64,000 bases of DNA. It comes from Candidatus Uhrbacteria bacterium GW2011_GWE2_46_68 (lineage in GTDB: Bacteria > Patescibacteriota > Patescibacteriia > UBA9934 > GWF2-40-263). The stretch is taken from contig LCMS01000004.1 in NCBI GenBank assembly GCA_001002765.1, forward strand, positions 68,775-132,774. Direction: 5' to 3'. Shown piece after piece: positions 5,949 to 64,000 of the stretch (positions are counted from its first letter, which is position 1; every line of letters starts with the position of its first letter). The translations under genes and the position numbers were made by a program. The notes under the pieces were generated by a model. The model was not told where the DNA came from, searched no databases, and worked only from the letters and a program-made list of their open reading frames with translations.

Positions 5949-7290
5949 TATGTCTCTTTTTCGATCAAGTTTAGAATCTTCTCCGTCTGCTATCCCTGCG
6001 GAGGTAGGGGGCCAACGTACTTCAGCAAACCTAAGCGAGGCCATCATGGATTCGGTTTCAAGTGTCCGTGATTCTTTGCCAAAAGAACACCGCACACACT
6101 TTGAAACTCTGCGACAAGAGATCATTGATTTTACAAAAGCTCATGGGATTCCAAAAGAATCTCTTGGCAGTCCCGACCTCCTGCGCGAGGCTACAAAAAA
6201 ACTTTCTACCCAAGACCTTGAGCGACTTGCTCTCCTTCTTGAACGCTTTGAGCATCTACTTACTCACAAAGAGCCTCGTCGGGAAAAATCGGAAGCGCTT
6301 GAGTATGCCGATGAGTGGTATAACCTTTCCGAACGATACGCGTTTCAAATGAATTTTTTAAAAACACTAGGCATATACTTCCTGCATGAGAGAAACAAGA
6401 CATTCAATGAACGCATAGCAAATTTAAAGAACTTGCTTGGATCCTTATTGCCTTTTGGAAAGAAAAAACGCGAGGTGCCTTCGGCGTCTGAATCCATGGA
6501 AGATTTTTTCCTTTTGGATGTATTGGGAAGAAAGTATTCTGTTCCCACCTTGGAACAAATCGCCGCGCGTCTTTTTGAACGTCGCGAGGAACTTGAAACC
6601 AAACACGATCAAGGTTTTACTCATCTTCTTTTTGTTCCTTTTGCCGTTGAGACTGATCTTTTCATGCTTGCTTTTGGAAAATTTCTTCAAGATCGCGATA
6701 TGGAGAAAACGTTAGTGTCCCCGGTAGCTTATGCAAGTACCACTCGTTCGGTGATGTCACGCTTACGATATTTTCCGCAATCTTTTGACGCGAAAGGAGG
6801 TGATAGAGGTAAAGACAAGATGGACATTTTGAAGGAATTATCTGAACAGGCAAGCTCTTTTCTCGGGTGGAGGATCCTTCTTCTTCAAACTCCTCATGGT
6901 CAAAAAAGAGGATTCCGCGGTATCTCAAAGGATGGAGACCAAAAGAAATCATTCACCCGTCCGGAATTGGAAGTGGGGAAGACGCCTTCGGAATACCTTT
7001 CTCTCCAGAGAGACGAAACATCGCCTTATGATGGAGAATCGAGTATGGTTCTTGAAGATTGGATTTGTGCTTTTATGATTCATTATATGGAAACACGATC
7101 TTGTCTTGACGATATGGAATCCGGGGGAAATGCAGCTTCTTATTTGACAGGAGTATCACTTCCTGGGGATTTTACCGGATCTCAAATGGTGATAGCTGTA
7201 AAGTATGCACACCAAGATATCTTTTTTTATTGCCATTCTCCTCATCACAAAGATGAACAGATTGGTGCGCGTTTTGTCGTAGAGGTTTGA
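5949..7290 (+). CDS. paralog family protein of unknown function (copy 1 of 3 in window)
   Basis: Starts MSLFRSSLESS at ATG 5949, right after the upstream TAA and a GGAGG RBS. Homologous over its full length to 62365..63663 and 63675..>64000 (shared LPKEH..F..LRQEIIDF..HGIP..L..PDLLREA..L...DLERLA.LLE, LLPFGKKKR, DQGFT.LL.VPF, SPY.GE...EDWI.AFM.H, IGARF.V). Confidence 0.6.
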
Positions 7291-13152: not shown

Positions 13153-13205
13153 TAGGGTCAGGTCGTGCTTCGTGCTTTTTATAAAACTATCTGACCCTAT
13201 GACCC
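13153..13205. repeat. REP-like palindromic unit pair (GGGTCAGGTCGTGCTTCGTGC ... CTGACCCTATGACCCC)
   Basis: Intergenic. GGGTCAG/CTGACCC inverted arms. Core identical to the REPs flanking the rayT gene. Confidence 0.6.
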
Positions 13206-25988: not shown

Positions 25989-26354
25989 ATGGAAGAATCC
26001 GCATCGTTTCAATTAGCTAAACAATTTTTGGGAAAAGAGGTAGAGGTTTTGATGGATAGGCCTTTGGGCAGTCTTCACCCAAAATACGGTTTTGTGTATG
26101 AGGCGAACTATGGATATCTTCAGGGGGTAAAGGCTCCGGATGGTGAAGATTTGGATGCGTATTATTTGGGAGTGGACCAACCGATAGAAAAAGGGAAAGG
26201 GATTGTCAGAGCGATCATTCATCGTTTGGAAGATGATGACGATAAACTGGTTGTTTTTCCCGAAGGGGTTACCATGACGGACGAAGAAATAGAAAAAGCG
26301 GTCGCGTTTCAAGAACAATATTTTATACACGAGATTTTAAGAGATCATTCATAA
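25989..26354 (+). CDS. short inorganic pyrophosphatase-like protein
   Basis: YEANYGYLQGVKAPDGEDLDAYYLG resembles the family I PPase core (Y.NYGFIP.T...DGDPLD), but 121 aa is shorter than canonical Ppa. Confidence 0.4.
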   Translation: MEESASFQLAKQFLGKEVEVLMDRPLGSLHPKYGFVYEANYGYLQGVKAPDGEDLDAYYLGVDQPIEKGKGIVRAIIHRLEDDDDKLVVFPEGVTMTDEEIEKAVAFQEQYFIHEILRDHS

Positions 26355-26355
26355 T

Positions 26356-26682
26356 ATGTCCCTTACTCCAGATCAAGAATGCGCGTTGATCGCCGCAGCA
26401 GAGGAAGGCGTGCGACATGCGTATACCGAGCATCAAAGCCCGGATGATTTTCGTATTGGCGCTGCTGTTCTTGCAGAGAAAGGTCATATTTTTTCCTCGG
26501 GTCAATATCGATCGGATAGCGGATCACTCACCCTTCATGCCGAGCAATGTGCGCTTGCCTATGCCTCTGCACATGGAGAATATGGTATCGTTGCGCTTGC
26601 AGTGACGTGGAACGAAAAGGCCGCTTCAAAAAGCGAAGGGGAGTCCATATATCCTTGTCACATGTGTAAGCAACTTTTATGA
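26356..26682 (+). CDS. cytidine/deoxycytidylate deaminase family protein, C-terminally truncated duplicate
   Basis: HAEQCAL...PCHMCKQLL zinc-binding motifs. About 95% nt identity to 27703-28030, but the stop falls right after CKQLL, where the inserted gene begins. Confidence 0.6.
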   Translation: MSLTPDQECALIAAAEEGVRHAYTEHQSPDDFRIGAAVLAEKGHIFSSGQYRSDSGSLTLHAEQCALAYASAHGEYGIVALAVTWNEKAASKSEGESIYPCHMCKQLL

Positions 26683-27659: not shown

Positions 27660-27702
27660 AAAATTTTAAGATGCAGATAAAAATCATAGAGGAATTCATG
27701 AT

Positions 27703-28143
27703 ATGTCTCTTACTTCAGATCAAAAACTCGCACTGATTGCTGCGGCAGAGGAAGGCGTGCGACATGCGTATACCGAGCATCAAAGCCCGGATGATTTTCG
27801 TATTGGCGCTGCTGTTCTTACAGAGAAAGGTCATATTTTTTCCTCGGGTCAATATCGATCGGATAGCGGATCACTCACCCTTCATGCTGAGCAATGTGCG
27901 CTTGCCCATGCCTCTGCACATGGAGAATATGGCATTGTTGCGCTTGCGGTGACGTGGAACGAAAAGGCCGCTTCAAAAAGCGAAGGGGAGTCCATATATC
28001 CCTGTCACATGTGCAAGCAACTTTTGTGGGAAAGTCATTTGCATTCAGGATTGGATATGGAAATTTTGATTGTGGAGAAGGGGGAAGTTCTGGAACAGAT
28101 CCATTTACAAAAACTTGTCGGCGACTACACCTGGCCGAAATAA
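27703..28143 (+). CDS. cdd: cytidine deaminase (full length)
   Basis: 146 aa; H-A-E and PCxxC zinc ligands; full-length copy of the duplicated gene. Confidence 0.7.
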   Translation: MSLTSDQKLALIAAAEEGVRHAYTEHQSPDDFRIGAAVLTEKGHIFSSGQYRSDSGSLTLHAEQCALAHASAHGEYGIVALAVTWNEKAASKSEGESIYPCHMCKQLLWESHLHSGLDMEILIVEKGEVLEQIHLQKLVGDYTWPK

Positions 28144-30541: not shown

Positions 30542-32713
30542 TTATCTTCGTAGTCGCAGCGAATTAAGCACAACGGAGACCGAAGAAAATGCCATGGCTG
30601 CGGAGGCGATGATCGGGGTCAAAAATCCAAGCGCTGCAAAGGGAATCGCCAACACATTATAGAGAAACGCCCAAAAAAGATTTTGTTTGATGATGCGATA
30701 AGTGCGTTGCGCCAGAACGATTGCTTGCGGAACTTTTAAAGGATCGCTTCCGATAATCACCATGTGTCCGGCTTCAAGCGCGATATCGGTTCCACTTCCC
30801 ATGGCGATCCCCAAATCCGCTTGTGTGAGCGCAGGCGCATCATTGATTCCATCTCCCACGAAGGCCACATGTTTTCCCTGTGCCTGCGCTTGCTTTACCA
30901 GATCAAGTTTTTGTTCGGGAAAAACTTGAGCGAAAATATGCGTCATACCCAATGGTTGTGCAATCGCTTCCGCGACTTCTTTTTTGTCGCCTGTCAACAT
31001 AGCTGTCTCGATATGACGCGTGTGTAATTCTTGCACCGTTTTTATCGCGGTGTCCCTGATCTGATCGCGAAGCGCAAAGAGACCGGCAATTTCTTGTTCT
31101 TTTGCAAAAATAAGAACGGTGCATCCTTCTTTGTGCCAGGCGCGTATGGTTTTTTCCAAAGCGGGAAGGATCGGGATTCCCATTTCTTCCATCCATGCGC
31201 GTTGCCCTAAGTGATAGAGATTATTTTGTATATTTCCCTGCACGCCCTTGGCTGTGACAGACAAGAAATGGTCGACAGGAAGCAGTGAAATTTTCTCTTT
31301 TTGTGCATGAGAGGCCAATGCCAAAGAAAGCGGATGAGAGGAGAAATGTGCAAGACTTGCAGCGTGCTGCAGAAGATCAGAGTCAGATCCCCGGAGGGTT
31401 TGCACGTGTACGATTGTGGGTTTTCCTTGGGTAAGTGTGCCCGTTTTATCAAAGAACACTTTTGAAATGTTTCGCGCGCGTTCAAGCGCCTCGCCGCTTT
31501 TGATAAGTATTCCTTGTCGCGCTCCATGTCCGGTTCCAACCAAGATGGCTGTGGGGGTGGCAAGACCCAAGGCACAAGGACAAGCGATAACCAAGACGGC
31601 AATGGCAGGAATCAAAGATGTGGTCACATCTTTTGTGATAAAAAACCAAACAATAAATGTCGAAAACGCAAGACCTAAAACCACGGGGACAAAGACAGCA
31701 GACACACGATCTGCGAGTGCTTGAATGGGCGCGCGTTTCATTTGCGCGTCTTGCATGAGTTTTACAATGCGCGCCATCAGGGTTTCTCCTGCGGGTTTTG
31801 TCACTTCTAAGGTCAGACTTCCGTCTTGATTGATTGTGGATGCAAAAACAGTATCCCCGATCTGTTTTGTTACGGGAATACTTTCGCCAGTGAGAGCAGA
31901 TTCATCCACGTTTGAGACTCCGGATTGCACCACAGCATCGGAAGGAATTTTCTCTCCGGGTTTGACCAACACACGATCTCCCACACGAATTTGTTCGGGT
32001 GGAATATCTCGTGTGCTACCATCCTGTTCAAGTAGATGTGCTTGCTTGGCTCCCAAAGAAAGGAGACCTTGCAAGGCTTCGCCAGCCTTTCCTTTGCTGC
32101 GGGCCTCCAGGGCTTTTCCCAGTAAGATGAAAAAAGTGATGATGGCCGCGGTTTCAAAATAGCGATGTGTCTCCACAAAAACCGCCCACCAACTTGAGAC
32201 AAGAGAAACAAGGGTGCCCAGCGAAATCAGAGCATCCATGCCGGCCGTGAATCGTCGCGCTTGTTGGAAAGCGACTTTATGAAAGATAAATCCCGTTCCA
32301 AGAACCGCAACAGAAGCGAGTATTCCTTCAAACCAAGGAAGGATCATTGAGGGGAGAGGAAGAAACCCCATAGCAGAAAGAAAAACGGGGAGAGCGAGTA
32401 TTCCCGAGAGTAAAGCGCGGCGATCGGCTTGTCTGCGCTCGCGTGCAAACGGGACGGCTCCATGATCATGTCCTTCCATGCCCGTATGTTTTTCTTGCGA
32501 AGCGGAATGAGAAGGAACTTGATATCCTTCTTGCTCGACTATTTTGTGTAATGCATGAATGTCTACGTTATCGTCTGCGTTGACTTGAGCTTGTTGCAAG
32601 GCATAATTTACACGTGCTTCTTTTATACCAGGATGTTTGGAGAGTTGTTGTTGAATGCGCACAGCACAAGAAGCGCAGTGCATACCTTCAATGGGAAAGT
32701 TGTAAGTTTTCAT
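30542..32713 (-). CDS. copA: copper-translocating P-type ATPase
   Basis: N-terminal HMA (GMHCASCAVRI), CPC motif (ACPCALGLATP), DKTGTLT, GDGINDAPAL. Confidence 0.9.
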   Translation of the reverse strand: MKTYNFPIEGMHCASCAVRIQQQLSKHPGIKEARVNYALQQAQVNADDNVDIHALHKIVEQEGYQVPSHSASQEKHTGMEGHDHGAVPFARERRQADRRALLSGILALPVFLSAMGFLPLPSMILPWFEGILASVAVLGTGFIFHKVAFQQARRFTAGMDALISLGTLVSLVSSWWAVFVETHRYFETAAIITFFILLGKALEARSKGKAGEALQGLLSLGAKQAHLLEQDGSTRDIPPEQIRVGDRVLVKPGEKIPSDAVVQSGVSNVDESALTGESIPVTKQIGDTVFASTINQDGSLTLEVTKPAGETLMARIVKLMQDAQMKRAPIQALADRVSAVFVPVVLGLAFSTFIVWFFITKDVTTSLIPAIAVLVIACPCALGLATPTAILVGTGHGARQGILIKSGEALERARNISKVFFDKTGTLTQGKPTIVHVQTLRGSDSDLLQHAASLAHFSSHPLSLALASHAQKEKISLLPVDHFLSVTAKGVQGNIQNNLYHLGQRAWMEEMGIPILPALEKTIRAWHKEGCTVLIFAKEQEIAGLFALRDQIRDTAIKTVQELHTRHIETAMLTGDKKEVAEAIAQPLGMTHIFAQVFPEQKLDLVKQAQAQGKHVAFVGDGINDAPALTQADLGIAMGSGTDIALEAGHMVIIGSDPLKVPQAIVLAQRTYRIIKQNLFWAFLYNVLAIPFAALGFLTPIIASAAMAFSSVSVVLNSLRLRR

Positions 32714-32718
32714 AAAAA

Positions 32719-32740
32719 GGGGTCAGGTCGTGAATCGTAG
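32719..32740 (+). repeat. REP element GGGGTCAGGTCGTGAATCGTAG (identical to rayT left flank)
   Basis: Exact 22-nt match to 56388-56409, in the 37-nt gap between copA and the HMA protein gene. Confidence 0.8.
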
Positions 32741-32750
32741 CGTTTATGTT

Positions 32751-34031
32751 TTAATCTTCGACGATAAGCGTCCCGCGCACCATGCCCATAGAGCAACTAA
32801 AGGTAAATGTTCCGGTACGATCCGGAGTAAAGGTGATAGTGTTTACTCCTTTTTGCAGGGGCATAAAGATATCGAAGGCAGAGAGGATAAGAGAATCTGC
32901 ACACCCTACGCGATCCGCGCGATCAATTTCCCATACCACGGGAATATTTTTTTTCACGGTGAATACATCGGGGTCATAGCTGCCATACGGAGTCACTTTC
33001 ATACGAATGGTTTGTGTCTCTTCCGTTTGTATCGCTGTTGTCGTTTCTCCCCATGTGGGCCAAGCGCTTAGGAGCAATAAACCGTTTTGCGCAGTTTGAA
33101 TGCTCAATGCCAGCGCGATTGCTCCGGCTCCTAACGTTGCCCACACGCGCACACTTCCCTTGATAGAGGTAAAAAAGATCCCAATTCCAAGGAGTGCCGG
33201 AAGCGTTCCCAAGACAAAAAGCCCAAGAGCAAGAGCTGAGAGCCACGGATTCCCAAGTGATAACGCATAGAGCTGCATGGCTTGAGTGAATCCGCAAGGA
33301 AGGAAAAAAGTGAGCGCTCCGGCCATCCATGCTCCTTTTGGATGCCCCAAAGGAAAGAGGCGTTTGATAAACATAGGGAAGGATGCAGGAGTTTTGAGGT
33401 GAAAAGACGGAGGCAACCACTGTACCAAGCGCAAACCGAGAAAGAACAAAAGAATGGCGATTCCAATGAGAAGAAAGCCGTTGATCGTTGGAGAGAGATG
33501 CACGGTAGATCCCAACGTGCCAATCAAAAATCCAAAAAAGACAAAGCTTGTCAGACGGCCTGCATGAAATTTAAGATGGAATTTCCACGGATGATTGAAC
33601 TTTGAGGCGGATCCCATGGCACTCGAGAGACTGGCAAGAATCCCTGCAAGCAAGGCGGAACAGGTGGAGAAAGAAGCGAGGATTCCTATACCAAGAATGC
33701 TTAATAACGGAAGAGTCCGTGATGGATCAAGAGAAGGAGAGGAAGTAAACGGAAGGAGAAACCAAAGAACGATCAAAGCCAGAACAAAAAGAATTCGTTT
33801 TGGCGATACGCGAAATTTTACGGGCGCGTTTGAGAGACGATACCCAAGAGGGGACAAGAGAGATTCAATCTCCTTTGATGTGTACACACGATCTGCTGTG
33901 AGATGAATTTGCTGAGTGTGAAGATTGACCGTAATTTCTTGAACGCTTGAAAGTGCACGCAAGGTTTGCGCGATGGTAATCTCGCAGCTGGAACAATGCA
34001 TGCCTTGGACATGAAAGATTTGTTTGGACAT
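32751..34031 (-). CDS. heavy-metal-associated (HMA) domain membrane protein with C-terminal cupredoxin-like domain
   Basis: N-terminal GMHCSSCEITI HMA motif, ~8 TM helices, C-terminal beta-rich VTPYGSYDPDVFTVKKNIPVVWEI...FSCSMGM cupredoxin-like module. Confidence 0.55.
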   Translation of the reverse strand: MSKQIFHVQGMHCSSCEITIAQTLRALSSVQEITVNLHTQQIHLTADRVYTSKEIESLLSPLGYRLSNAPVKFRVSPKRILFVLALIVLWFLLPFTSSPSLDPSRTLPLLSILGIGILASFSTCSALLAGILASLSSAMGSASKFNHPWKFHLKFHAGRLTSFVFFGFLIGTLGSTVHLSPTINGFLLIGIAILLFFLGLRLVQWLPPSFHLKTPASFPMFIKRLFPLGHPKGAWMAGALTFFLPCGFTQAMQLYALSLGNPWLSALALGLFVLGTLPALLGIGIFFTSIKGSVRVWATLGAGAIALALSIQTAQNGLLLLSAWPTWGETTTAIQTEETQTIRMKVTPYGSYDPDVFTVKKNIPVVWEIDRADRVGCADSLILSAFDIFMPLQKGVNTITFTPDRTGTFTFSCSMGMVRGTLIVED

Positions 34032-45597: not shown

Positions 45598-45739
45598 AGG
45601 GGATATTGTTAAGGACGGGTTGATTGTAACATGACCATTGGTGCCTTGCACGGCATAGATTTCTTTGTTATGCTTTTGCCACGTTCTTTGGAAAAAAGAA
45701 TTATTCCGGGGTAGCTCAGTGGTTAGAGCGGCTGGCTGT

Positions 45740-46318
45740 GGCACACGCTTATAGGTATTATAGAATTCTATGGAATCCAACAAGCGATCCTATGCCCGAC
45801 GCGCGGAATATCTCAAAAAAGCAGTTGTACGCAGAAGGCGTGAAGTTCGAGAGAAGGCGATTGCTCACTTAGGTGGTCAATGTCAGATATGTGGTTATAA
45901 ACGTTGTGAGCAGGCTCTCGATTTTCATCACCGCAACCATAAGGAAAAAACATTCGGCATTTCCCAAAAAGGATATACAAGATCTTGGGAAAGAGTAAAA
46001 GAAGAACTAAAAGGTTGTGTCTTTCTTTGTGCAAATTGTCATCGAGAAATTCACGCAGGGTATACGCAGCTTCTGACAGAGATGTCAGAATGATCATAGG
46101 GTGAACTTCTGGAAGCCTACATCCGAAAGGATATGGTAATCAGAAGCCAAGCCCCACGAAGTTTAAGACAAGTGGGGAAGGTTCAGAGACTATCCGTTAT
46201 GACCCTCAAAAGAGAGGGGAGGAGTACCTCGCCAAAAGGCGGGGGAAGCGCCCTACATCCTCGCAATATGCAGGATGATGATATAGTCCACCCCTTTGGG
46301 AAACCAAAGGATGATGTG
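45740..46318 (+). ncRNA. group I self-splicing intron in tRNA-Asn anticodon loop (between nt 36 and 37)
   Basis: Catalytic-core element R (GTTCAGAGACTATCC, 46181-46195) and element S (GATATAGTCC, 46280-46289) form P7. 5' splice after U, terminal omega-G at 46318. Contains an HNH ORF. Confidence 0.7.
45770..46093 (+). CDS. HNH homing endonuclease (intron-encoded)
   Basis: CQICGYKRCEQALDFHHRNHKEK...CVFLCANCHREIHAG carries the HNH/zinc-finger motif. Located inside the intron 5' region. Confidence 0.75.
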   Translation: MESNKRSYARRAEYLKKAVVRRRREVREKAIAHLGGQCQICGYKRCEQALDFHHRNHKEKTFGISQKGYTRSWERVKEELKGCVFLCANCHREIHAGYTQLLTEMSE

Positions 46319-46382
46319 TAACCAGTAGGTCGTGGGTTCAAGTCCCACCCCCGGAGCCACAAAGATCCCTAGCAATTTGCTA

Positions 46383-46465
46383 GGGATTTTTGTTATCCGT
46401 GATAGAATGATCGTGAAGTTTCCGTGTGTACAAACAGAAAAGTCCGATGTCCGGACTTGACCCTG
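46383..46465 (+). repeat. 83-bp direct repeat copy A (T-tract + extended -10 promoter TGATAGAAT + 5'UTR with REP-like core)
   Basis: Identical over ~74 nt to 47925-48008. Preceded by hairpin CCCTAGCAA-tt-TGCTAGGG at 46367-46385. Contains GTCCGGACTTGACCC, related to REP rc CGACCTGACCC. Confidence 0.8.
46400..46408 (+). promoter_or_regulatory. extended -10 promoter box TGATAGAAT (within repeat A)
   Basis: TGnTAnAAT extended -10. The same 21-nt box T(T/G)TCCGTGATAGAATGA(T/C)CGT also occurs at 47942 and 49483. Confidence 0.5.
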
Positions 46466-46504
46466 TTTTCCATTGCCTCAAACGAGAACCATAACAATTC
46501 CACT

Positions 46505-47200
46505 ATGCAAAATCGTCCACATACAACACTTTTCATGCTCATGTCGATAGATGGCAAAATTACAAGCGGAGATTCGGACAGTCTTGACTCAGATCGTGAT
46601 TGGAAGCGTATTTGTGGCGTGAAGGAAGGGCTTTATCAATATTATGATCTAGAGAAACAAACCGATTTTTGTTTTCTACAAAGCGGTCGCGTTTTCGAAA
46701 AAATTGGCATGAATAATCGAGGACCATCAGTTGAAAAGATCCCTGTGACCGGGGTAGTCATAGACAACAAGCCGCATCTCAATGCAAAAGGCCTGCGCCA
46801 TCTTTCAACCTGGTTAGACCGAGTGATTATCGCCACAACAAATCCAAACCATTCCGCACATACTTTTGGAGGAAACGTACAGGTCATTCAATACAACAAC
46901 ACGATTGATTTCTCCGCTTTACTGACAGAGTTAAAAGAGAATTTTGACGTTGACCGAGTCACCATCCAAACCGGCGGTACATTGAATGGTCTTTTATTGC
47001 GTCAGGGACTCATTGACGAATTATCAATCATCGTAGCCCCACTTGCTGTTGGAGGAAAGGGAGTATCAACACTTATCGACGGTGAGGCAATCCATTCCGT
47101 TAATGATTTGAACAAGTTAAAGGCACTCGAACTTACATCCTGTGACGTATTGAAACATTCATTCCTTCATCTTCGTTATACAGTTTTAAACTATTCGTGA
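46505..47200 (+). CDS. dihydrofolate reductase-like / RibD C-terminal domain family protein
   Basis: MQNRPHTTLFMLMSIDGKITSG... with C-terminal GGTLNGLLLRQGLIDELSIIVAPLAVGG, typical of the RibD_C/DHFR-like fold. Start at internal ATG 46505, downstream of the repeat. Confidence 0.55.
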   Translation: MQNRPHTTLFMLMSIDGKITSGDSDSLDSDRDWKRICGVKEGLYQYYDLEKQTDFCFLQSGRVFEKIGMNNRGPSVEKIPVTGVVIDNKPHLNAKGLRHLSTWLDRVIIATTNPNHSAHTFGGNVQVIQYNNTIDFSALLTELKENFDVDRVTIQTGGTLNGLLLRQGLIDELSIIVAPLAVGGKGVSTLIDGEAIHSVNDLNKLKALELTSCDVLKHSFLHLRYTVLNYS

Positions 47201-47838
47201 TGAGGGTTGAAACTGTATACTGTTCAGGTATGAAGAAAGAAATAAAATTTCCGACAAAACAAGAAGTTGATGTCCACATAAATCAGAACAGGACGGAACT
47301 TTTTTCTGACCCAGACTTTCGGGAATATGAGGAAGTGGATATTATTTTTCTCGAACCAACACAACTTATTGCTTTGAGAGATTACCCTCCTCTGCACAGT
47401 CCCGAAGCTTTTACGGTGTATCGCAAGAAATTTGTAGCAGGTGAGAGAGTTGAACCCATTGTTGTTATTCCATCTCGAATTGTTATTGAATATTTAAAGA
47501 AGAATGAAGTTCGTGCTCATACGTACAGACAAGAACTTGAGCTGTTTCTTAATACACACCCACGAGCCACATACTTTATGCTCGGTGGCAAACATCGTTC
47601 GGCTGCAGCAACGATATTAGGTGTAAGAATTCCTTGCCTTGTGATCAGCAACGATGCTGATGTCGCTAAAATTAACGCTCTTATGGCGGAAGGTAAACTG
47701 ACAGGCATGCCGAGTGTTGGAGAAAATTTTAAAAGGACACTTTCCGAATTAGATGATCATTATTTTGAACACAAAGTTTTTTGGACCATGGATGAAAAAA
47801 CAAAAGCAATGATAGATCACGGGGACATTTCTCTTTAA
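47197..47838 (+). CDS. ParB/Srx-like nuclease domain protein
   Basis: LGGKHRSAAATILGVRIPCLVI resembles the ParB N-terminal domain core (GG.HR). ATGA overlap with the upstream gene. Confidence 0.45.
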   Translation: MMRVETVYCSGMKKEIKFPTKQEVDVHINQNRTELFSDPDFREYEEVDIIFLEPTQLIALRDYPPLHSPEAFTVYRKKFVAGERVEPIVVIPSRIVIEYLKKNEVRAHTYRQELELFLNTHPRATYFMLGGKHRSAAATILGVRIPCLVISNDADVAKINALMAEGKLTGMPSVGENFKRTLSELDDHYFEHKVFWTMDEKTKAMIDHGDISL

Positions 47839-47924
47839 AGTCAAATGAAAAAAATTTAGCGCTCGAATGGCTGTTTTTGAATGACTCATAACAGGGAATC
47901 GGCAAAATTCTTCAGCGAAGGCTG

Positions 47925-48008
47925 GGGATTTTTGTTATCCGTGATAGAATGATCGTGAAGTTTCCGTGTGTACAAACAGAAAAGTCCGATGTCCGGACCT
48001 GACCCTGT
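47925..48008 (+). repeat. 83-bp direct repeat copy B (T-tract + extended -10 promoter + 5'UTR)
   Basis: Identical to 46383-46465 except 1-2 nt. Preceded by hairpin CAGC-gaag-GCTG. Promoter box TGATAGAAT at 47942-47950. Confidence 0.8.
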
Positions 48009-48035
48009 CCTCCACCGTTTTCCTTTGGTCTCATT

Positions 48036-48233
48036 ATGAAAAAATTTCATGGAAAAATATTTTATTTTGTCTTCACCATATTGTTTGGTGCATTCACGTT
48101 CCTCTATGGGGAATTTGATGATAGCCCCGGTGGCCAATTGATAGGATTGGCGGCGGTTATTATTGGCATCATAGGTTCGATGCGTTCATTGCGCGCGGCA
48201 AGCCGCATGGGACGAACGAACAAAAAGTCATAA
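48036..48233 (+). CDS. small membrane protein (2 TM)
   Basis: 65-aa hydrophobic ORF immediately downstream of repeat B. Confidence 0.3.
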   Translation: MKKFHGKIFYFVFTILFGAFTFLYGEFDDSPGGQLIGLAAVIIGIIGSMRSLRAASRMGRTNKKS

Positions 48234-48240
48234 TAGTTTT

Positions 48241-49371
48241 ATGAAAATTGCAACAAACATTGGACGTGATGCTTTTGGTGGAATCACTATTTCCAACCTT
48301 GCCCTTTTTGATTGGCTCGAAGACAAAGAGGATACTATTGTTGGTATTGAATACGTAACTTCAAGACATTTTTTAGGGGCGGTAATCTTTCGTCGTTACC
48401 TTCCCTCGTTTTTCAGTCATCACATTATTAACGGTATAGATATTATTCCCCGTTTTTCTTGGGAGAAAAGTGGCAATCTCAGAAAACGTTGGAATATCTT
48501 AGTCGAGACAACAAAAAATGTTTTACGACAAGAAGCACCAGATATCGTTTTGATTAATGGGACATATTTTGCCCCTTGGATACTCGCTATTGCAGCACAC
48601 GAGCTCGGTATTCCCATTGTTTTACGATATGCGGGTGTGTTACAAAGAGAAGTAGGTCATAGACCTTTTTTTATTAAAAGACGTCTTTTGTCTTATGAAA
48701 GATGGTTGGCATCAGCGGCCAACTCTATCATTTTTCCCTCAACTCTTTGTCAGATGGTCGTAGAAAAGGAAATAGTAGGACATGCTGTGAGACACAGTGT
48801 CGTAATACCAAATCCAGCCACATCAGGTTTATTGCGCCATCAAAAACCAAACAGTCGTTATGTTATAGCCGCAGTCGGTCGTTGGTCACGAATAAAAAAC
48901 TTTCAGGCTTTTATCACGCTTCATCAATCGTTGTTAGAAAAGAAGTTTCCACACCAAGCAATCATGGTTACTTCGTATTGGGACAAAAAGTTCGGTATTC
49001 CAGAAACCATTGAATGTAAAGATCCCATGAGTCAAGAAGATCTTCAAAAGTTTTATCGATCAGTTGATCTTCTGATTGTTCCTTCACTTTTTGAAACTTT
49101 TTGTAATGTTGCGGCCGAAGCATTGGTGAATGGAAGTTCCGTTCTGGTTTCTAAAAATGTGGGTTTTGCCGAAATACTCATCAAGGCTGGACTTAAACGT
49201 ATGGTGATTGATTCGTTTGATTGTCCTGAAAAAGTTGTATTAGCGATAAAACGATTGGCTAAAATAAAACTTTCAGAAAAAGAAAGAAAAAGGGTCGTCG
49301 CTTTGCTCAATCCGCAAGAAATACATCAAGACATTCTTAAGACGCTTGTCGGAGTTGTGAAAGGAAAATGA
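48241..49371 (+). CDS. glycosyltransferase family 4 (GT-B fold)
   Basis: C-terminal IVPSLFETFCNVAAEALVNGSSVLVS matches the GT4 E-x7-E region. Confidence 0.65.
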   Translation: MKIATNIGRDAFGGITISNLALFDWLEDKEDTIVGIEYVTSRHFLGAVIFRRYLPSFFSHHIINGIDIIPRFSWEKSGNLRKRWNILVETTKNVLRQEAPDIVLINGTYFAPWILAIAAHELGIPIVLRYAGVLQREVGHRPFFIKRRLLSYERWLASAANSIIFPSTLCQMVVEKEIVGHAVRHSVVIPNPATSGLLRHQKPNSRYVIAAVGRWSRIKNFQAFITLHQSLLEKKFPHQAIMVTSYWDKKFGIPETIECKDPMSQEDLQKFYRSVDLLIVPSLFETFCNVAAEALVNGSSVLVSKNVGFAEILIKAGLKRMVIDSFDCPEKVVLAIKRLAKIKLSEKERKRVVALLNPQEIHQDILKTLVGVVKGK

Positions 49372-49482
49372 TGAATTGTATGAAAAAATATTTTTTAGCA
49401 CTCCCGAGTCACTGTTTTCAAATCACTTGCGATGTGGGTCCAGGAAAATTTTTCAGATTCGTCTGGAGATTTTCATTGTCCG

Positions 49483-49491
49483 TGATAGAAT
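49483..49491 (+). promoter_or_regulatory. extended -10 promoter box TGATAGAAT (third copy of conserved 21-nt box)
   Basis: TTGTCCGTGATAGAATGACCGT, preceded by a small hairpin plus T-tract, 30 nt upstream of the 49522 start. Confidence 0.45.
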
Positions 49492-49521
49492 GACCGTAAG
49501 TATTTTTAACCCATTTTTCCT

Positions 49522-50088
49522 ATGTCTAAACGCATCTTCTTTATTCCGCTCCTGGTTTTAGTTTTGATCGGTGCCGGATGCCAGACAAACACCATTCAAG
49601 ATGATAGCGACACCGAAACAACTCTGGGAATCACATCAGAAACATTTGAAAGTGAACAGGGAGATTTTTCTTATACACTTACGTGGAACACAGGCCTTCT
49701 TTCTTTATCTGAAAAAGTCTCTACCGAAGCTTCAGAGCATGCCCCTTCTTTTGCCGTTGTCGGCGGCGGAAACATTACGGTGGTCACAGGCCTCATGGAT
49801 TCGCCCGAATATCAAATGTCCACCTTTATCAATGATATGTATTATGAGGGGGATCGAGAAAAAATTTGGTTATCTGAAGTCGTTCCCTCAGAAGCCGGTA
49901 TGAATAATCCCGTTTATTTTTTCTCCCAACCAGTTGATTGGAACCCTGCATGTATCGTTCAATACGGTGCTATCAAAGGGTTGAACGAAGCCTTATTAAT
50001 ACGTTTGGAAGATTGTGAGGGCAATGATATGAAATCAAGTGAAGCATTTCATGATCTCTTGAGCGATCTGATTATCACGAGAAAATAA
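49522..50088 (+). CDS. putative lipoprotein
   Basis: Signal peptide MSKRIFFIPLLVLVLIGAGCQ with lipobox-like GAGC. Confidence 0.4.
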   Translation: MSKRIFFIPLLVLVLIGAGCQTNTIQDDSDTETTLGITSETFESEQGDFSYTLTWNTGLLSLSEKVSTEASEHAPSFAVVGGGNITVVTGLMDSPEYQMSTFINDMYYEGDREKIWLSEVVPSEAGMNNPVYFFSQPVDWNPACIVQYGAIKGLNEALLIRLEDCEGNDMKSSEAFHDLLSDLIITRK

Positions 50089-53969: not shown

Positions 53970-54019
53970 AATCAAAAATCAAAGGTGGGGACAGAAGCGT
54001 CCCTGCTTTTGTTTTGGCG

Positions 54020-56388: not shown

Positions 56389-57301
56389 GGGGTCAGGTCG
56401 TGAATCGTAGTGTTCAACATTTATTTTTCTATGACAAGACCACTTCGCATTGAATATCCTGGAGCATTTTATCACATCATCTCCCGCGGAAACGCGCATC
56501 AAGATATTTATCTTGACAATAAAGATCGACAAAATTTTTTAATGAATCTTCAGCATTGCCTCCGGTCGCACTCTCTCCGATGTCATGCTTATTGTTTGAT
56601 GAACAATCACTATCATTTACTTTTAGAAACGCCTAGAGGGAATTTATCTCAAGCCATGCGTGACATCAACGGTCTCTACACTCAAAAATTTAACAAGAGA
56701 CATAAACGTATTGGCCATGTTCTTCAAGGGCGTTACAAAGCTTTCCTTGTTGAAAAGGACGCTTATCTTTTACAAATTGCTCGTTATATTGTCCTCAATC
56801 CACTAAAAGCCGGTATAGTCAATCATCCAAAAAAATGGAGGTGGAGCAGCTATTCCATTACAGCTGGTCTTAGAGAGTCTCCAACTTGGTTTGACTCAAG
56901 TGTTATTCTTGCTCTTTTTACATCAAATAAAAAAAGAGCACAAAAGTACTATCGTCGATTTGTATATGAAGGTGAAAATGAACCTTTTCTTTACGAGAAA
57001 GGAAAGGGGGGTGTGATTTTGGGTAGCCAAGAATTTGCAGATCAGATTCGGAGAGAGTTTAAAAATAAGAAAAGTTCAAAAGAAGTTGTCATTTCTGAAA
57101 GAGTGATCAGTCGTCCAAGTTTAGAAGATTTATTTTTTCAGATAGATAATCAAGAAGAACGGAACAAGATGATAAAATTAGCTAGAATAAAAGCCTTTTA
57201 TTCCGTTACAGAAATCGCGAATCATTTAGGTTTACACAGAACAACCGTCAGTAAAATTTTTAACGATAAAACATGAATGCTACGATTCACGACCTGACCC
57301 C
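56388..57301 (+). mobile_element. REPtron: IS200-like Y1 (RayT-like) transposase gene flanked by inverted 22-bp REPs
   Basis: Left GGGGTCAGGTCGTGAATCGTAG (56388-56409) and right CTACGATTCACGACCTGACCCC (57280-57301) are perfect reverse complements. The same REP occurs at 32719 and relatives at 13155, 4533/4720 and 46451/47991. Confidence 0.8.
56431..57276 (+). CDS. rayT: REP-associated tyrosine transposase (IS200/IS605-like Y1 HUH transposase)
   Basis: YHIISRGN...HAYCLMNNHYHLLLETP (HuH) and RYKAFL (catalytic Tyr region) match the Y1_Tnp (PF01797) pattern. ATG 56431 chosen over the GTG at 56410. Confidence 0.8.
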   Translation: MTRPLRIEYPGAFYHIISRGNAHQDIYLDNKDRQNFLMNLQHCLRSHSLRCHAYCLMNNHYHLLLETPRGNLSQAMRDINGLYTQKFNKRHKRIGHVLQGRYKAFLVEKDAYLLQIARYIVLNPLKAGIVNHPKKWRWSSYSITAGLRESPTWFDSSVILALFTSNKKRAQKYYRRFVYEGENEPFLYEKGKGGVILGSQEFADQIRREFKNKKSSKEVVISERVISRPSLEDLFFQIDNQEERNKMIKLARIKAFYSVTEIANHLGLHRTTVSKIFNDKT

Positions 57302-57306
57302 TTTTT

Positions 57307-58689
57307 ATGTCTAAACTTTTTCCTCCTCCGTTATCACTTCGCAAACTCATTGGCCCTAGTTTTTTGATTCTCGCGCTCGGGCTTGGATCGGGCGAAGTGA
57401 TCCTCTGGCCTTATCTTGCCTCCAACTATGGGCTGGGCATCGCTTGGGGGGCGCTCATCGGCATCACGTTTCAGTATTTCATCAATATGGAAATCGAACG
57501 CTATGCGCTTGTGAAAGGCGAAAGCGTGTTTGTGGGATTTACAAAAAAATGGAGCTGGACACCCTATTGGTTCATTCTTTCCACTTTTGTTGGATTTGGA
57601 TTGCCGGGGATTATCGCCGCTTCGGCAAAGGTGTTCAGTGCGATGGTCGGGGTTGAAGATTTTCGTTTCATCGCCATTCTTTTTCTCCTCTTGATCGGTT
57701 TCATTTTGAGCGCGGGTAAAACCGTGTACGGACTTATGGAACGGCTCACAAAGATCGTTATTCTTTGCGGTGTCCCATTTATTTTTTTATTGGCGATCGT
57801 GTTGAGCGATCCACAGGATTGGTTCATCCTTGGAAGAGGAATTTTGGGAATAGGGGAGGGATATCGTTTTCTTCCGGAAGGAATTATTCTCGCCACCTTC
57901 TTTGGGGCGTTTGCTTATTCCGGTGCGGGTGGAAATCTTAATCTCACCCAATCCATCTACGTAAAAGAAGAAGGCTATGGCATGGGGAAGTATGCGCAAA
58001 AAATTTCCGGACTTTTCAAACACCAGACAGTGCAAGAAATGAAACTGGAAGGAGAGACCTTTCCAATGAATGCCGAAGCAAAGAAAAATTTTTTCGGATG
58101 GTGGAGAAAAATTTCCCTAGAACATGCATTGGTGTTTTGGTTTGTGGGAGCACTCTCAATTTTTCTTCTCATGCTCCTTTCTTTCGTGACCTCGTTTGGT
58201 AATCCGGAAAATGCACAAGGGATCAGTTTTGTGATCACCGAAGGAGCTGCCATTGGAAGCCGAATTTTTCCCTGGGTCGGCACACTCTTCCTTCTGGTCG
58301 TTTCTATCATGCTCTTTCAGACTCAACTGGGAGTGATGGATTCCACTTCTCGTATTATGGCCGAGAATGCGGCGCTTCTCATCATGAAACATAAGCGCAC
58401 ACAGACAATCGCTCTTTCTAAAATCTATTTTTCATTTCTGTGGGCGCAAATAGCTTTTGGTATTTTGCTTTTCCTTCTGGGTATTTCCGAACCTAAAACC
58501 TTGATTGTGCTTGGTGCTTGTCTCAATGCCGTTGCCATGTTTGTCCATGTGGGACTTGTTCAAGTGCTTAATCATCATGCGCTTCCTAAAGTTTTTCGTC
58601 CTCGTGTGTGGAGAAAAATACTCTTGGCCGGCATTTTTCTTTTTTTTGGCGTCTTCAGCGCAATCGTTTTTATCGATCAGCTGTTCTAG
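57307..58689 (+). CDS. mntH: Nramp family divalent metal cation transporter
   Basis: N-terminal LGPSFLILALGLGSGEVILWPYLASNYGLGIAWGAL is the Nramp signature region; 11-12 TM. Confidence 0.75.
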   Translation: MSKLFPPPLSLRKLIGPSFLILALGLGSGEVILWPYLASNYGLGIAWGALIGITFQYFINMEIERYALVKGESVFVGFTKKWSWTPYWFILSTFVGFGLPGIIAASAKVFSAMVGVEDFRFIAILFLLLIGFILSAGKTVYGLMERLTKIVILCGVPFIFLLAIVLSDPQDWFILGRGILGIGEGYRFLPEGIILATFFGAFAYSGAGGNLNLTQSIYVKEEGYGMGKYAQKISGLFKHQTVQEMKLEGETFPMNAEAKKNFFGWWRKISLEHALVFWFVGALSIFLLMLLSFVTSFGNPENAQGISFVITEGAAIGSRIFPWVGTLFLLVVSIMLFQTQLGVMDSTSRIMAENAALLIMKHKRTQTIALSKIYFSFLWAQIAFGILLFLLGISEPKTLIVLGACLNAVAMFVHVGLVQVLNHHALPKVFRPRVWRKILLAGIFLFFGVFSAIVFIDQLF

Positions 58690-62364: not shown

Positions 62365-63663
62365 ATGGCTTCTTTTTCACGATCCTCTCTTCCCGAGCCT
62401 TATCGTGATCAATTTGATTTTCTTCGTCAGGAGATCATTGATTTTGCAGCATCTCACGGGATTCCAAGAGAGGCGCTTGCCAAACCCGATCTTCTCCGCG
62501 AGGCTGCAAACAAACTCCCCACCCCAGACCTCGAGCGACTAGCTGTTCTTCTTGAGCGTTTTAAACACCTCATCGTTCATCGTGAACCCTACAGAGAAAC
62601 ACAGGCTGAAATTTTGGAATACGCGGAAACATTTTATAACTTGAGAGAACAATACACACTCCAATGTGATTTGTTCAAACGTCTGAAGCTTTTACAGGTA
62701 GGGTATTTGTCAGAACCTGTAGACACGGAGCGCACACAAGGATTGTCCGCTCTTTTTCGCTCCCTGTTGCCTTTTGGGAAAAAGAAAAGGGTGCGCAAAG
62801 AGCCTCCAAAAAAAGGCAAAGAATTTTTCTTTGTCTACGGAATAGATGGAAAACAATATACGTTTCCCACCTTGGAAGAAGTGGCGGAGCGTCTTTATCG
62901 TCAACAAGAACGTTTGCATATCAAGCGCGATCAAGGTTTTACCAAACTCCTCCTTGTTCCTTTTGGCATGAGACTTGAAGATTTATTCTCTATTTATTTC
63001 AGAAAATTTTTAACCGGGTATCAAGAGGCTCATCCGAATTTCGGTCTCAAAGGAGATGGACTTATGAGCGGATATGACGATTTTGTCCATGTGGACAGAG
63101 GAAGTAATCCCCGTCTTTTTTATTACCCAAGGTTTTTTCGAGAAACGGATCATCAAGGAAAAACAAAACCTCAGATTTTAAGAGAACGAGTAGCACAAGG
63201 TGTCTCTTGTCCCGGATGGAATATCAGTCTTTTTCAACCGCTTGAACCTGATGACCTTTACTCCAAAGGGTTTGCTTCCATTAGCAGGCATGATTATACC
63301 CAAGGCAAAGAGTGCCTCCGTCCTTGTTTAAGCGTCGGTCGTCCTCCACACGAATATCTTTCCTTGCTCGAAGATGCTAAAGCAAATCCTGATTCTCCTT
63401 ATCATGGCGAAACGGGGATGACTCCCGAAGATTGGATAACCGCTTTTATGGTGCACCTTGAAGAAACAGGAAGACCACTTGATGATTTTCTAGGTCCTGG
63501 GGAATCTGAAGCTTATCTTTTGGGTTCCTTTTTTCCGGCGAATTATTGTTTTATGCCTTATGCGCGTTGGGATAACCATTTCGGCAAACCGGGAATGTCG
63601 AAGGGGACTATGCCCGCTGAATCATATGAAAATATAGGCGCTCGTTTTTTAGTGCAGATTTGA
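62365..63663 (+). CDS. paralog family protein of unknown function (copy 2)
   Basis: Start MASFSRSS (internal ATG). Homologous throughout to 5949..7290. Confidence 0.6.
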   Translation: MASFSRSSLPEPYRDQFDFLRQEIIDFAASHGIPREALAKPDLLREAANKLPTPDLERLAVLLERFKHLIVHREPYRETQAEILEYAETFYNLREQYTLQCDLFKRLKLLQVGYLSEPVDTERTQGLSALFRSLLPFGKKKRVRKEPPKKGKEFFFVYGIDGKQYTFPTLEEVAERLYRQQERLHIKRDQGFTKLLLVPFGMRLEDLFSIYFRKFLTGYQEAHPNFGLKGDGLMSGYDDFVHVDRGSNPRLFYYPRFFRETDHQGKTKPQILRERVAQGVSCPGWNISLFQPLEPDDLYSKGFASISRHDYTQGKECLRPCLSVGRPPHEYLSLLEDAKANPDSPYHGETGMTPEDWITAFMVHLEETGRPLDDFLGPGESEAYLLGSFFPANYCFMPYARWDNHFGKPGMSKGTMPAESYENIGARFLVQI

Positions 63664-63674
63664 TGTTTGATTTT

Positions 63675-64000
63675 ATGTCTTCTTTTTCTCGCTCATCTCC
63701 CGAATCCGTCCCATCTATTACTTTTCACGAAGCCACCCCCACGGAGGTGGGGGTCCAACGTACTTCGGAAATCTTAAATGAAGCCATCCTCTCTTCAGTT
63801 TCAAGTGTCCGTGATTCTTTGCCCAAAGAACATCATGGGCACTTTGACACTCTCCGACAAGAGATTATTGATTTTACAAAAGCTCATGGGATTTCCAAAG
63901 ATGCACTTTCCAATCCCAGCCTCCTTCGTGAGGTGACCGACAAACTCTCCATCCCAGACCTCGAACGACTCGCTCTCCTTCTCGAGCACTTTGAGTATTT
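63675..64000 (+). CDS. paralog family protein of unknown function (copy 3, partial at window end)
   Basis: MSSFSRSSPESVPS...VSSVRDSLPKEHHGHFDTLRQEIIDFTKAHGI. The 5' region is ~85% nt-identical to 5949-6200. Confidence 0.55.
   Translation, partial: MSSFSRSSPESVPSITFHEATPTEVGVQRTSEILNEAILSSVSSVRDSLPKEHHGHFDTLRQEIIDFTKAHGISKDALSNPSLLREVTDKLSIPDLERLALLLEHFEY

Follow-up and report, generated by a model that had tools for sequence, protein, structure and literature searches.

What accounts for a near-perfect direct repeat that encloses two genes immediately downstream of a tRNA-Asn gene? The question is raised by a locus of Candidatus Uhrbacteria bacterium GW2011_GWE2_46_68, a groundwater bacterium within the Patescibacteria (Candidate Phyla Radiation), that lies in a 64,000 bp stretch of contig LCMS01000004.1 (positions 68,775 to 132,774), which we refer to as the window and whose numbering is used throughout. 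The enclosed genes encode a RibD_C/DHFR-like reductase and a protein with a ParB/Srx-like fold, and an earlier note on this DNA suggested either a duplicated regulatory module or a tRNA-proximal accessory islet, possibly for defence or addiction. We favor an explanation of the first type, with a probability of roughly 60%: the two repeats (R1 and R2) and a partial third copy (R3) would be local paralogues of an ordinary intergenic control module, with R1 and R2 made near-identical by recent non-reciprocal recombination. R1 and R2 do not mark a defence island.

R1 (46379–46472, plus strand) consists of the right arm of a hairpin, a T-run, a promoter and a leader, and matches the right part of R2 (47921–48014) at 90 of 94 positions; the four differences are at 46382, 46457, 46467 and 46468, and the exact core extends for 74 nt (46383–46456). 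No match of a comparable level is seen in shuffled sequence. The 83 bp cassettes that had been described as identical correspond to this repeat, which is real, although they match at 82 of 83 positions and the second interval was drawn one base too long. R3 (49380–49502, plus strand) is homologous to 47845–47962 (score of 89, compared with 21 ± 3 for shuffles) and includes the 3′ flank, a weak hairpin, a T-run and a promoter (GTGATAGAAT at 49482–49491) without the R1/R2 leader; it is ~79% identical to R2. R2 is a mosaic, with a left part (47845–47962) resembling R3 and a right part (47921–48014) resembling R1, and because of this we regard it as the full-length member of the set (47845–48014, plus strand, ~170 nt). 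It starts a few bases past the stop codon of the upstream gene, and contains a hairpin at 47909–47928, GTGATAGAAT at 47941–47950, and a remnant resembling repetitive extragenic palindromic (REP) elements at 47973–48005. R1 has its promoter, its leader and the right terminator arm in common with R2; the sequence to the left of 46379 is unrelated to that to the left of 47921. All three copies are in the same orientation and occupy three adjacent intergenic regions, and the full cassette including the leader is present only twice in the window. A duplication of a regulatory module is thus supported by the 90/94 match, and R3 adds a third, partial member.

The anatomy of these copies is that of a terminator followed by a promoter, as had been proposed, together with a 5′ leader in R1 and R2. 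In all three there is a hairpin and then a T-run, with predicted folding energies of –22.8, –17.8 and –9.8 kcal/mol for R1, R2 and R3, respectively, and these are positioned after the tRNA-Asn gene (R1), the ParB/Srx-like gene (R2), and a glycosyltransferase family 4 (GT4) gene (R3), so that each transcription unit ends in the arrangement expected of an intrinsic terminator. The R1 hairpin (46359–46393 with its T-run, plus strand) has 17 nt arms and a fold z-score of –8.6, and is predicted to end the tRNA transcript; that of R3 is weak, its fold stability being equalled or exceeded by 18 of 200 shuffles. Because the R2 and R3 stems need G.U pairs, these two would work only as plus strand RNA. 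Between the R1 and R2 stems one T-A pair has become C-G and two G-C pairs have become G.U, and the hairpin is kept though the left arms have diverged.

An extended –10 sequence, TGATAGAAT, is found in R1, R2 and R3, and the box GTGATAGAAT begins 6–7 nt past the T-run (46399–46408 in R1, plus strand, with a predicted transcription start at ~46415). There are five exact copies of GTGATAGAAT in the window (at 46399, 47941, 49482, 52325 and 54019), where ~0.1 is expected from base counts, and a one-mismatch copy at 2456. All of these, including the one-mismatch copy, are on the plus strand and 25–200 nt upstream of a plus strand gene, with the five exact copies at 30–200 nt, and the site at 54019 has the same layout of hairpin, T-run and box as the cassettes. 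No –35 box was found at a distance of 16–18 nt for R1 or R2. A recurrent TGnTAnAAT box that is suitably spaced from genes agrees with an extended –10 promoter of the sigma-70 type, and since it recurs upstream of plus strand genes we take it to be a common strong promoter of this organism. Extended –10 (TGn) promoters positioned directly after intrinsic terminators are known from compact genomes, and the match is close here, with TGnTAnAAT, no usable –35, and a hairpin and T-run 6–7 nt upstream; the sole oddity is that there are two near-identical copies including their leaders. It had been suggested that the cassette could be just a common promoter; this applies to the –10 box, a common consensus, and not to the full cassette with its leader. 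The unusual part of the locus is the near-identity of two copies including ~55 nt of predicted transcribed leader, not the promoter box.

A simple account of the locus is that each module fronts one of three consecutive transcription units on the plus strand and would have two jobs. First, the intrinsic terminator would stop the upstream transcript, which for R1 is that of tRNA-Asn. Second, a few bases further on, the strong extended –10 box, which would need no –35, would restart transcription. R1 and R2 would in addition give their transcripts the same ~55 nt start of the 5′ untranslated region, containing a decayed REP-like element. The near-identity would then have arisen by local gene conversion or by the copying of a short segment, with the common promoter or REP sequence as the seed; in this way a second unit would have gained the promoter and leader, probably at the time that RibD_C entered between tRNA-Asn and the ParB/Srx-like gene. 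That the recombination was recent, local and non-reciprocal we infer from the 74 nt exact core of R1 and R2, the lower identity of R2 with R3 (only ~79%) and the lack of relatedness among the genes on either side; any direction or date assigned to the copying, and any co-regulation, are deductions of the same kind.

The ~55 nt leader shared by R1 and R2 is the part of the cassette for which an origin is suggested, and the earlier note had proposed a REP-like core within it. The 3′ half of the leader resembles, in reverse orientation, a repeat family elsewhere in the window, with scores of 27–37 that are reached by 0–1 of 300–500 shuffles. The similarity is thus significant and the proposal holds, with the cassette copy being decayed: it agrees at ~26 of 33 positions, has TCC in place of the CTAC head, and contains a 5–7 bp hairpin. 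From its sequence it seems best called a decayed REP-like remnant (46431–46463 in R1, plus strand, aligning to the reverse complement of the REP-like repeats and including a hairpin at 46440–46458). The repeat family itself, GGGGTCAGGTCGTGAATCGTAG, is present at 13154, 32719 and 56389 on the plus strand and is inverted at 57267–57309. This family, the likely source of the remnant in R1 and R2, includes the 36 nt inverted REP-like repeats at 56389–56424 and 57266–57301 that flank a REP-associated tyrosine transposase (RAYT) gene at 56431–57276 (NCBIfam NF047646, 84.7 bits compared with a cut-off of 80; Pfam Y1_Tnp; the whole spanning 56389–57301, plus strand). There are solo REP-like copies at 32711–32768 and 13154–13203, the latter forming a REPIN-like hairpin (z-score of –3.05).

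The system has much in common with the REP elements and RAYTs of enterobacteria, where likewise there is a RAYT, here above the equivalog cut-off, with inverted flanking repeats and solo intergenic copies. The cassette differs from REP elements in that its copy is degenerate and has lost the CTAC/GTAG head, and in that the 94 nt identity reaches into the promoter and terminator; it also differs from REP families in having only two full copies here, in which a role of the RAYT is hypothetical. A second comparison is with Correia elements of Neisseria and the ERIC/BOX-type repeats, which like the cassette are intergenic repeats of ~100–170 nt supplying transcription signals to what lies downstream. 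However, the cassette has neither terminal inverted repeats nor a target-site duplication, and its three copies are adjacent and in one orientation rather than dispersed, which looks like local copying and not transposition.

Several points weigh against the copying of an ordinary control module. The in-register starts of R1, R2 and R3 (46379, 47921 and 49462) are 1542 and 1541 nt apart, and a comparison of units 1 and 2 by blastn and tblastx, sought as an explanation for this spacing, revealed no similarity; near-equal spacing in spite of unrelated contents is not explained by simple conversion. The copy counts cover the 64 kb window, and there could be further copies elsewhere in the genome. 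An exact-pattern scan of the GTDB representative genomes, a collection without this species, gave no match to the cassette core, the only match to the promoter and leader hairpin in a metagenome scan was this same locus, and two scans for the cassette in viral contigs found nothing. The direction of the copying (R1 to R2 or the reverse) needs close relatives, of which the scans retrieved none, and there is no synteny to draw on. The terminator, the promoter and the transcription start are all predictions from consensus. Finally, two contigs have the segment in a circularly permuted form and could make it more than a passive duplicate.

These two contigs, L003 (2,088 bp, assembled with IDBA-UD) and L004 (1,503 bp, assembled with MEGAHIT at k127), are apparently from the same sample by accession numbering, and at 99.7–99.9% identity both contain the order ParB/Srx-like gene, hybrid cassette, RibD_C gene. 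In the hybrid, 47924 reads as in copy 2, and 46457, 46467 and 46468 read as in copy 1. They speak for an alternative in which the 1,542 bp unit is amplifiable or mobile, so that some members of the population would have it tandemly duplicated or excised as a circle, through RecA-type recombination across the 74 nt identity or through the action of the RAYT on the REP-like hairpins, which are directly oriented at the two ends. Directly oriented short repeats between genes are well known as sites at which tandem duplications are joined, such as those mediated by REP elements in enterobacteria, and the window contains both a RAYT and its REP family. Two assemblers agree on the junction, and because the 74 nt core is shorter than the k of 127 used for L004, a contig of this kind would not normally be assembled unless there were real junction reads or the unit had a far higher depth.

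However, L003 is chimeric at its 5′ end. The first 520 nt are the Lgt gene of another Patescibacteria genome, joined through an exactly shared 21–22-mer, AAATAAAATTTCCGACAAAAC (L003 1–540 compared with L018 1378–1480 and window 47243–47263; scaffold ANAN16-1_SAMN03202999 scaffold_128897). We considered and rejected the Lgt context as a second insertion site, as this is an assembly chimera and the normal Lgt context differs. The genuine part of L003 runs from the shared 21-mer round to the same 21-mer, which is exactly one cycle, and the junction could therefore be a low-coverage cycle in the de Bruijn graph that passes through the collapsed repeat. Neither contig is long, and both presumably have low coverage, whereas all long contigs from independent assemblies have the single-copy order of the window, including a 41 kb JGI contig that carries the window sequence at 100% identity. 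The cassette copy has lost the CTAC/GTAG head of REP elements, and the junction fits homologous recombination, or any other route, equally well. A tandem duplication, a circle and an artefact of assembly would each account for the junction, and we consider an amplifiable or mobile unit unlikely. Three further contigs from different assemblies (L009, L010 and L011) all end at 47887, 34 nt before repeat copy 2, and this shared end suggests a variant of the strain or population that diverges there.

A less probable alternative, which we regard as doubtful, is that the shared leader is a selected cis-regulatory element (an operator, an RNA structure or a short upstream open reading frame) that would co-regulate both units in response to a single signal. 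Several features of the leader are of the sort to be expected. A 22 nt imperfect palindrome, TTTCCGTGT-GTAC-AAACAGAAA, at 46419–46440 and 47961–47982, is just past the –10 box, where repressor operators usually sit. A small hairpin, AAGTCCG-ATGTC-CGGACTT (46440–46458 in R1), is present in both copies, and the ATG in its loop opens a reading frame of 15–16 codons, which in R1 ends 9 nt before the RibD_C start and in R2 overlaps the start of the next gene, encoding a 65-residue protein (ATGA). Against this, the leader has no Rfam match even at a permissive threshold (E up to 5), and apart from the small hairpin whole leaders fold no better than shuffles (z-scores of –1.6 and –0.05). Two near-identical copies offer no covariation, R3 is without the leader, a 15-codon open frame arises by chance about half the time, and the palindrome is nowhere else in the 64 kb. 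A recent copy explains the near-identity more simply. A coding leader, starting with GTG at 46424 or 47966, was also considered and rejected, as it is in frame with RibD_C and out of frame with the 65-residue gene.

It is more improbable still that the 1,542 bp segment is a non-autonomous unit that carries its own promoter, in circular or tandem form, and is possibly moved by the RAYT 9 kb away acting on the directly oriented REP-like hairpins. If true, this would be a RAYT-driven gene cassette, not a bare REP, and it would have left its trace in the permuted contigs of one groundwater sample.

The tRNA-Asn gene beside the repeats is split, as had been recognized. ARAGORN misses the unspliced gene, and joining the exons at 45739|46319 yields a 76 nt tRNA-Asn(gtt). 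The 5′ exon (45705–45739, plus strand) ends at the U of anticodon position 35, the intron (45740–46318, plus strand, 579 nt) interrupts the gene at position 35/36, and the 3′ exon (46319–46359, plus strand) has an encoded CCA. The intron is of group I (Rfam RF00028, 87.6 bits, E 5e-21, covering 45999–46310), with a G as its last base and a U preceding the 5′ splice site, and includes an open reading frame (45770–46093) for a 107-residue HNH-type protein with a CxxC...CANCHREIH motif. Group I introns that lie at position 35/36 in the genes for tRNA-Asn and for tRNA-Asp have been described in the Patescibacteria (Nakagawa et al., mSystems 2026, PMC13011429), and by its sequence the intron in the window is of the same type (>500 nt, HNH endonuclease reading frame, position 35/36). 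In relation to that report, the intron-split tRNA is the neighbour of the repeat finding and not the finding itself. A second split tRNA-Asn is present in contig L015 (1612–2001), where the intron has no long open reading frame.

The tRNA is of interest in relation to the ParB/Srx-like gene, which is downstream of a tRNA with a GUN anticodon in five of the five contexts examined. In three of these it directly adjoins the tRNA: a tRNA-Asn(GUU) is 107 nt upstream in a Falkowbacteria contig (L012, 4820–5531), and a tRNA-Asp(GUC) is 78 nt upstream in L034 (3846–4528) and 119 nt upstream in L035 (3805–4525). The Falkowbacteria contig has the same layout before the ParB/Srx-like gene as the window, with a hairpin, a T-run and GTGATATAATGAT after tRNA-Asn. 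In the other two contexts inserted genes separate the ParB/Srx-like gene from an intron-split tRNA-Asn(GUU). One is the window (47230–47838), where RibD_C is between them, and the other is L015 (1612–5540), in which the tRNA is 3 kb upstream and an integrase fragment, a Fic gene, a gene for a 194-residue protein and a SET-domain remnant intervene, with the last of these just upstream of the ParB/Srx-like gene. L034 and L035 look related, and the five contexts thus represent about four independent lineages, a small sample. On these sequences, the conserved feature is the linkage of tRNA-Asn/Asp to the ParB/Srx-like gene, with a gap between them that appears to accept insertions.

Since the ParB/Srx-like gene is a neighbour of tRNA-Asn/Asp in all five contexts, RibD_C is the likely newcomer, and since homologues of the ParB/Srx-like gene adjoin these tRNAs without RibD_C in other lineages, it appears to be a resident and not cargo. 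RibD_C next to a ParB/Srx-like gene is absent around the nearest homologues of either gene, and downstream of the two nearest homologues of RibD_C (87% and 78% identity) there are other genes. The 32 nt upstream of RibD_C (46473–46504) are kept beside the 87% homologue, and the similarity stops at the right edge of R1, though that contig has only 14 nt beyond this edge; conservation ending at the R1 edge is in line with RibD_C being the newcomer. Around relatives of the GT4 gene in eight genomes (44–72% identity; from Peregrinibacteria, Magasanikbacteria and other groups) there are none of the neighbours seen in the window, nor any flanking repeats, cassette or tRNA-Asn, and for this reason they gave no usable comparison with an empty site. 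Proteins with 72% identity to the GT4 protein are encoded in L024 and L031, contigs labelled Peregrinibacteria and other lineages. The fraction of G+C at third codon positions (GC3) is lower in the ParB/Srx-like and GT4 genes than in their neighbours (for GT4, 0.29 compared with ~0.40 in nearby core genes), and 72% identity without shared neighbours together with low GC3 suggests gene-by-gene horizontal exchange among Patescibacteria. With no conserved gene order among relatives, the region downstream of tRNA-Asn is therefore a patchwork. Look-ups of exact matches to the flanking 65-residue and HNH proteins recovered no empty-site contig. A viral-contig scan for the ParB/Srx-like family found nothing.

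We can thus set aside the suggestion that RibD_C and the ParB/Srx-like gene form an island integrated at tRNA-Asn, with the 94 nt repeats as att-like sites and with a defence or addiction function, as hardly credible: the site is immediately 3′ of a tRNA and accepts insertions (e.g. the integrase-Fic block in L015), the direct repeats enclose exactly two genes, and GC3 is low in the ParB/Srx-like and GT4 genes, but the repeats hold a terminator and promoter and no tRNA sequence, starting at 46379, 20 nt past the tRNA end at 46359, there is no integrase nearby and between the repeats only the RibD_C and ParB/Srx-like genes, the latter is not cargo, neither gene has the other beside its nearest homologues, no empty-site contig was recovered, and there were no matches of PADLOC models to six proteins of the locus. 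What survives of the accessory islet is an insertion spot, occupied by RibD_C here and by the integrase-Fic block in L015.

The RibD_C gene (46505–47200, plus strand) encodes a 231-residue protein of the RibD_C/DHFR reductase family, as had been recognized (Pfam PF01872, E 4.6e-20, 72.7 bits compared with a cut-off of 24.1), which is below every NCBIfam equivalog cut-off. There are 849 homologues, and those with a named source are Patescibacteria. The downstream ParB/Srx-like gene overlaps RibD_C, as originally described, only if it starts with GTG at 47197; the N-termini of homologues favor ATG at 47230, which leaves a 29 nt spacer after RibD_C. With this start the gene (47230–47838, plus strand) encodes a 202-residue protein for which a ParB/Srx fold is confirmed by structure prediction and structure search. 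Structurally it is best matched by sulfiredoxin and serine kinases, none of them nucleases, and while the fold assignment in the earlier note agrees with the prediction, its nuclease label is unsupported. An alignment profile of the protein had no sequence-level match in Pfam or among PDB sequences. The motifs DYPPLHSP and GGKHRSAAA are invariant in the family, and GGKHR is at the place of the phosphate-binding GxxR of the superfamily; the predicted fold and this motif together point to membership of the ParB/Srx superfamily (sulfiredoxin, SerK/SbnI, the ParB N-terminal CTPase domain, PadC and KorB). The protein differs from these in the lack of a Pfam or PDB sequence match and of a DNA-binding helix-turn-helix extension, and in having a tRNA gene as its genomic partner. 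The family is small, with 168 representative clusters at E ≤ 0.001, and members with a named source are Patescibacteria. Fusions occur in two homologues, to a GNAT acetyltransferase in P0011 and to a SET domain in P0039.

The first gene predicted to be driven by R2 (48036–48233, plus strand) is an open reading frame, also called by JGI, for a predicted membrane protein of 65 residues with no family match in Pfam or NCBIfam. It is followed by the GT4 gene (48241–49371, plus strand; Pfam Glycos_transf_1 and Glyco_transf_4). R3 is predicted to drive a putative lipoprotein gene (49522–50088, plus strand), in which the lipobox LIGAGC can be read from the sequence. Elsewhere in the window there are other long direct repeats, a 300 nt pair at 26347–26646 and 27694–27993 (94% identity, 1347 nt apart), as well as 160–270 nt similarities of 77–80% between 5989–6257 and 62410–64000. 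Both are probably paralogous genes.

The cassette adds one more example to known kinds and reveals no new system, since extended –10 promoters, intrinsic terminators, REP/RAYT systems and duplications mediated by repeats are each well documented. It shows a very compact Patescibacteria genome reusing one terminator-promoter-leader block for unrelated neighbours, and such blocks create substrates for recombination. The RibD_C and ParB/Srx-like genes on the one hand and the 65-residue and GT4 genes on the other would share identical promoters and leader starts, and across the 74 nt identity homologous recombination could readily loop out the 1,542 bp segment or amplify it in tandem. Two side results may matter more than the cassette itself. 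One is that a genome of the Candidate Phyla Radiation contains a RAYT/REP system. The other is the linkage to tRNA-Asn/Asp, the same two tRNAs that carry introns at position 35/36 in this phylum, which is a concrete lead on the function of the ParB/Srx-like protein, for which a functional connection with these tRNAs is possible.

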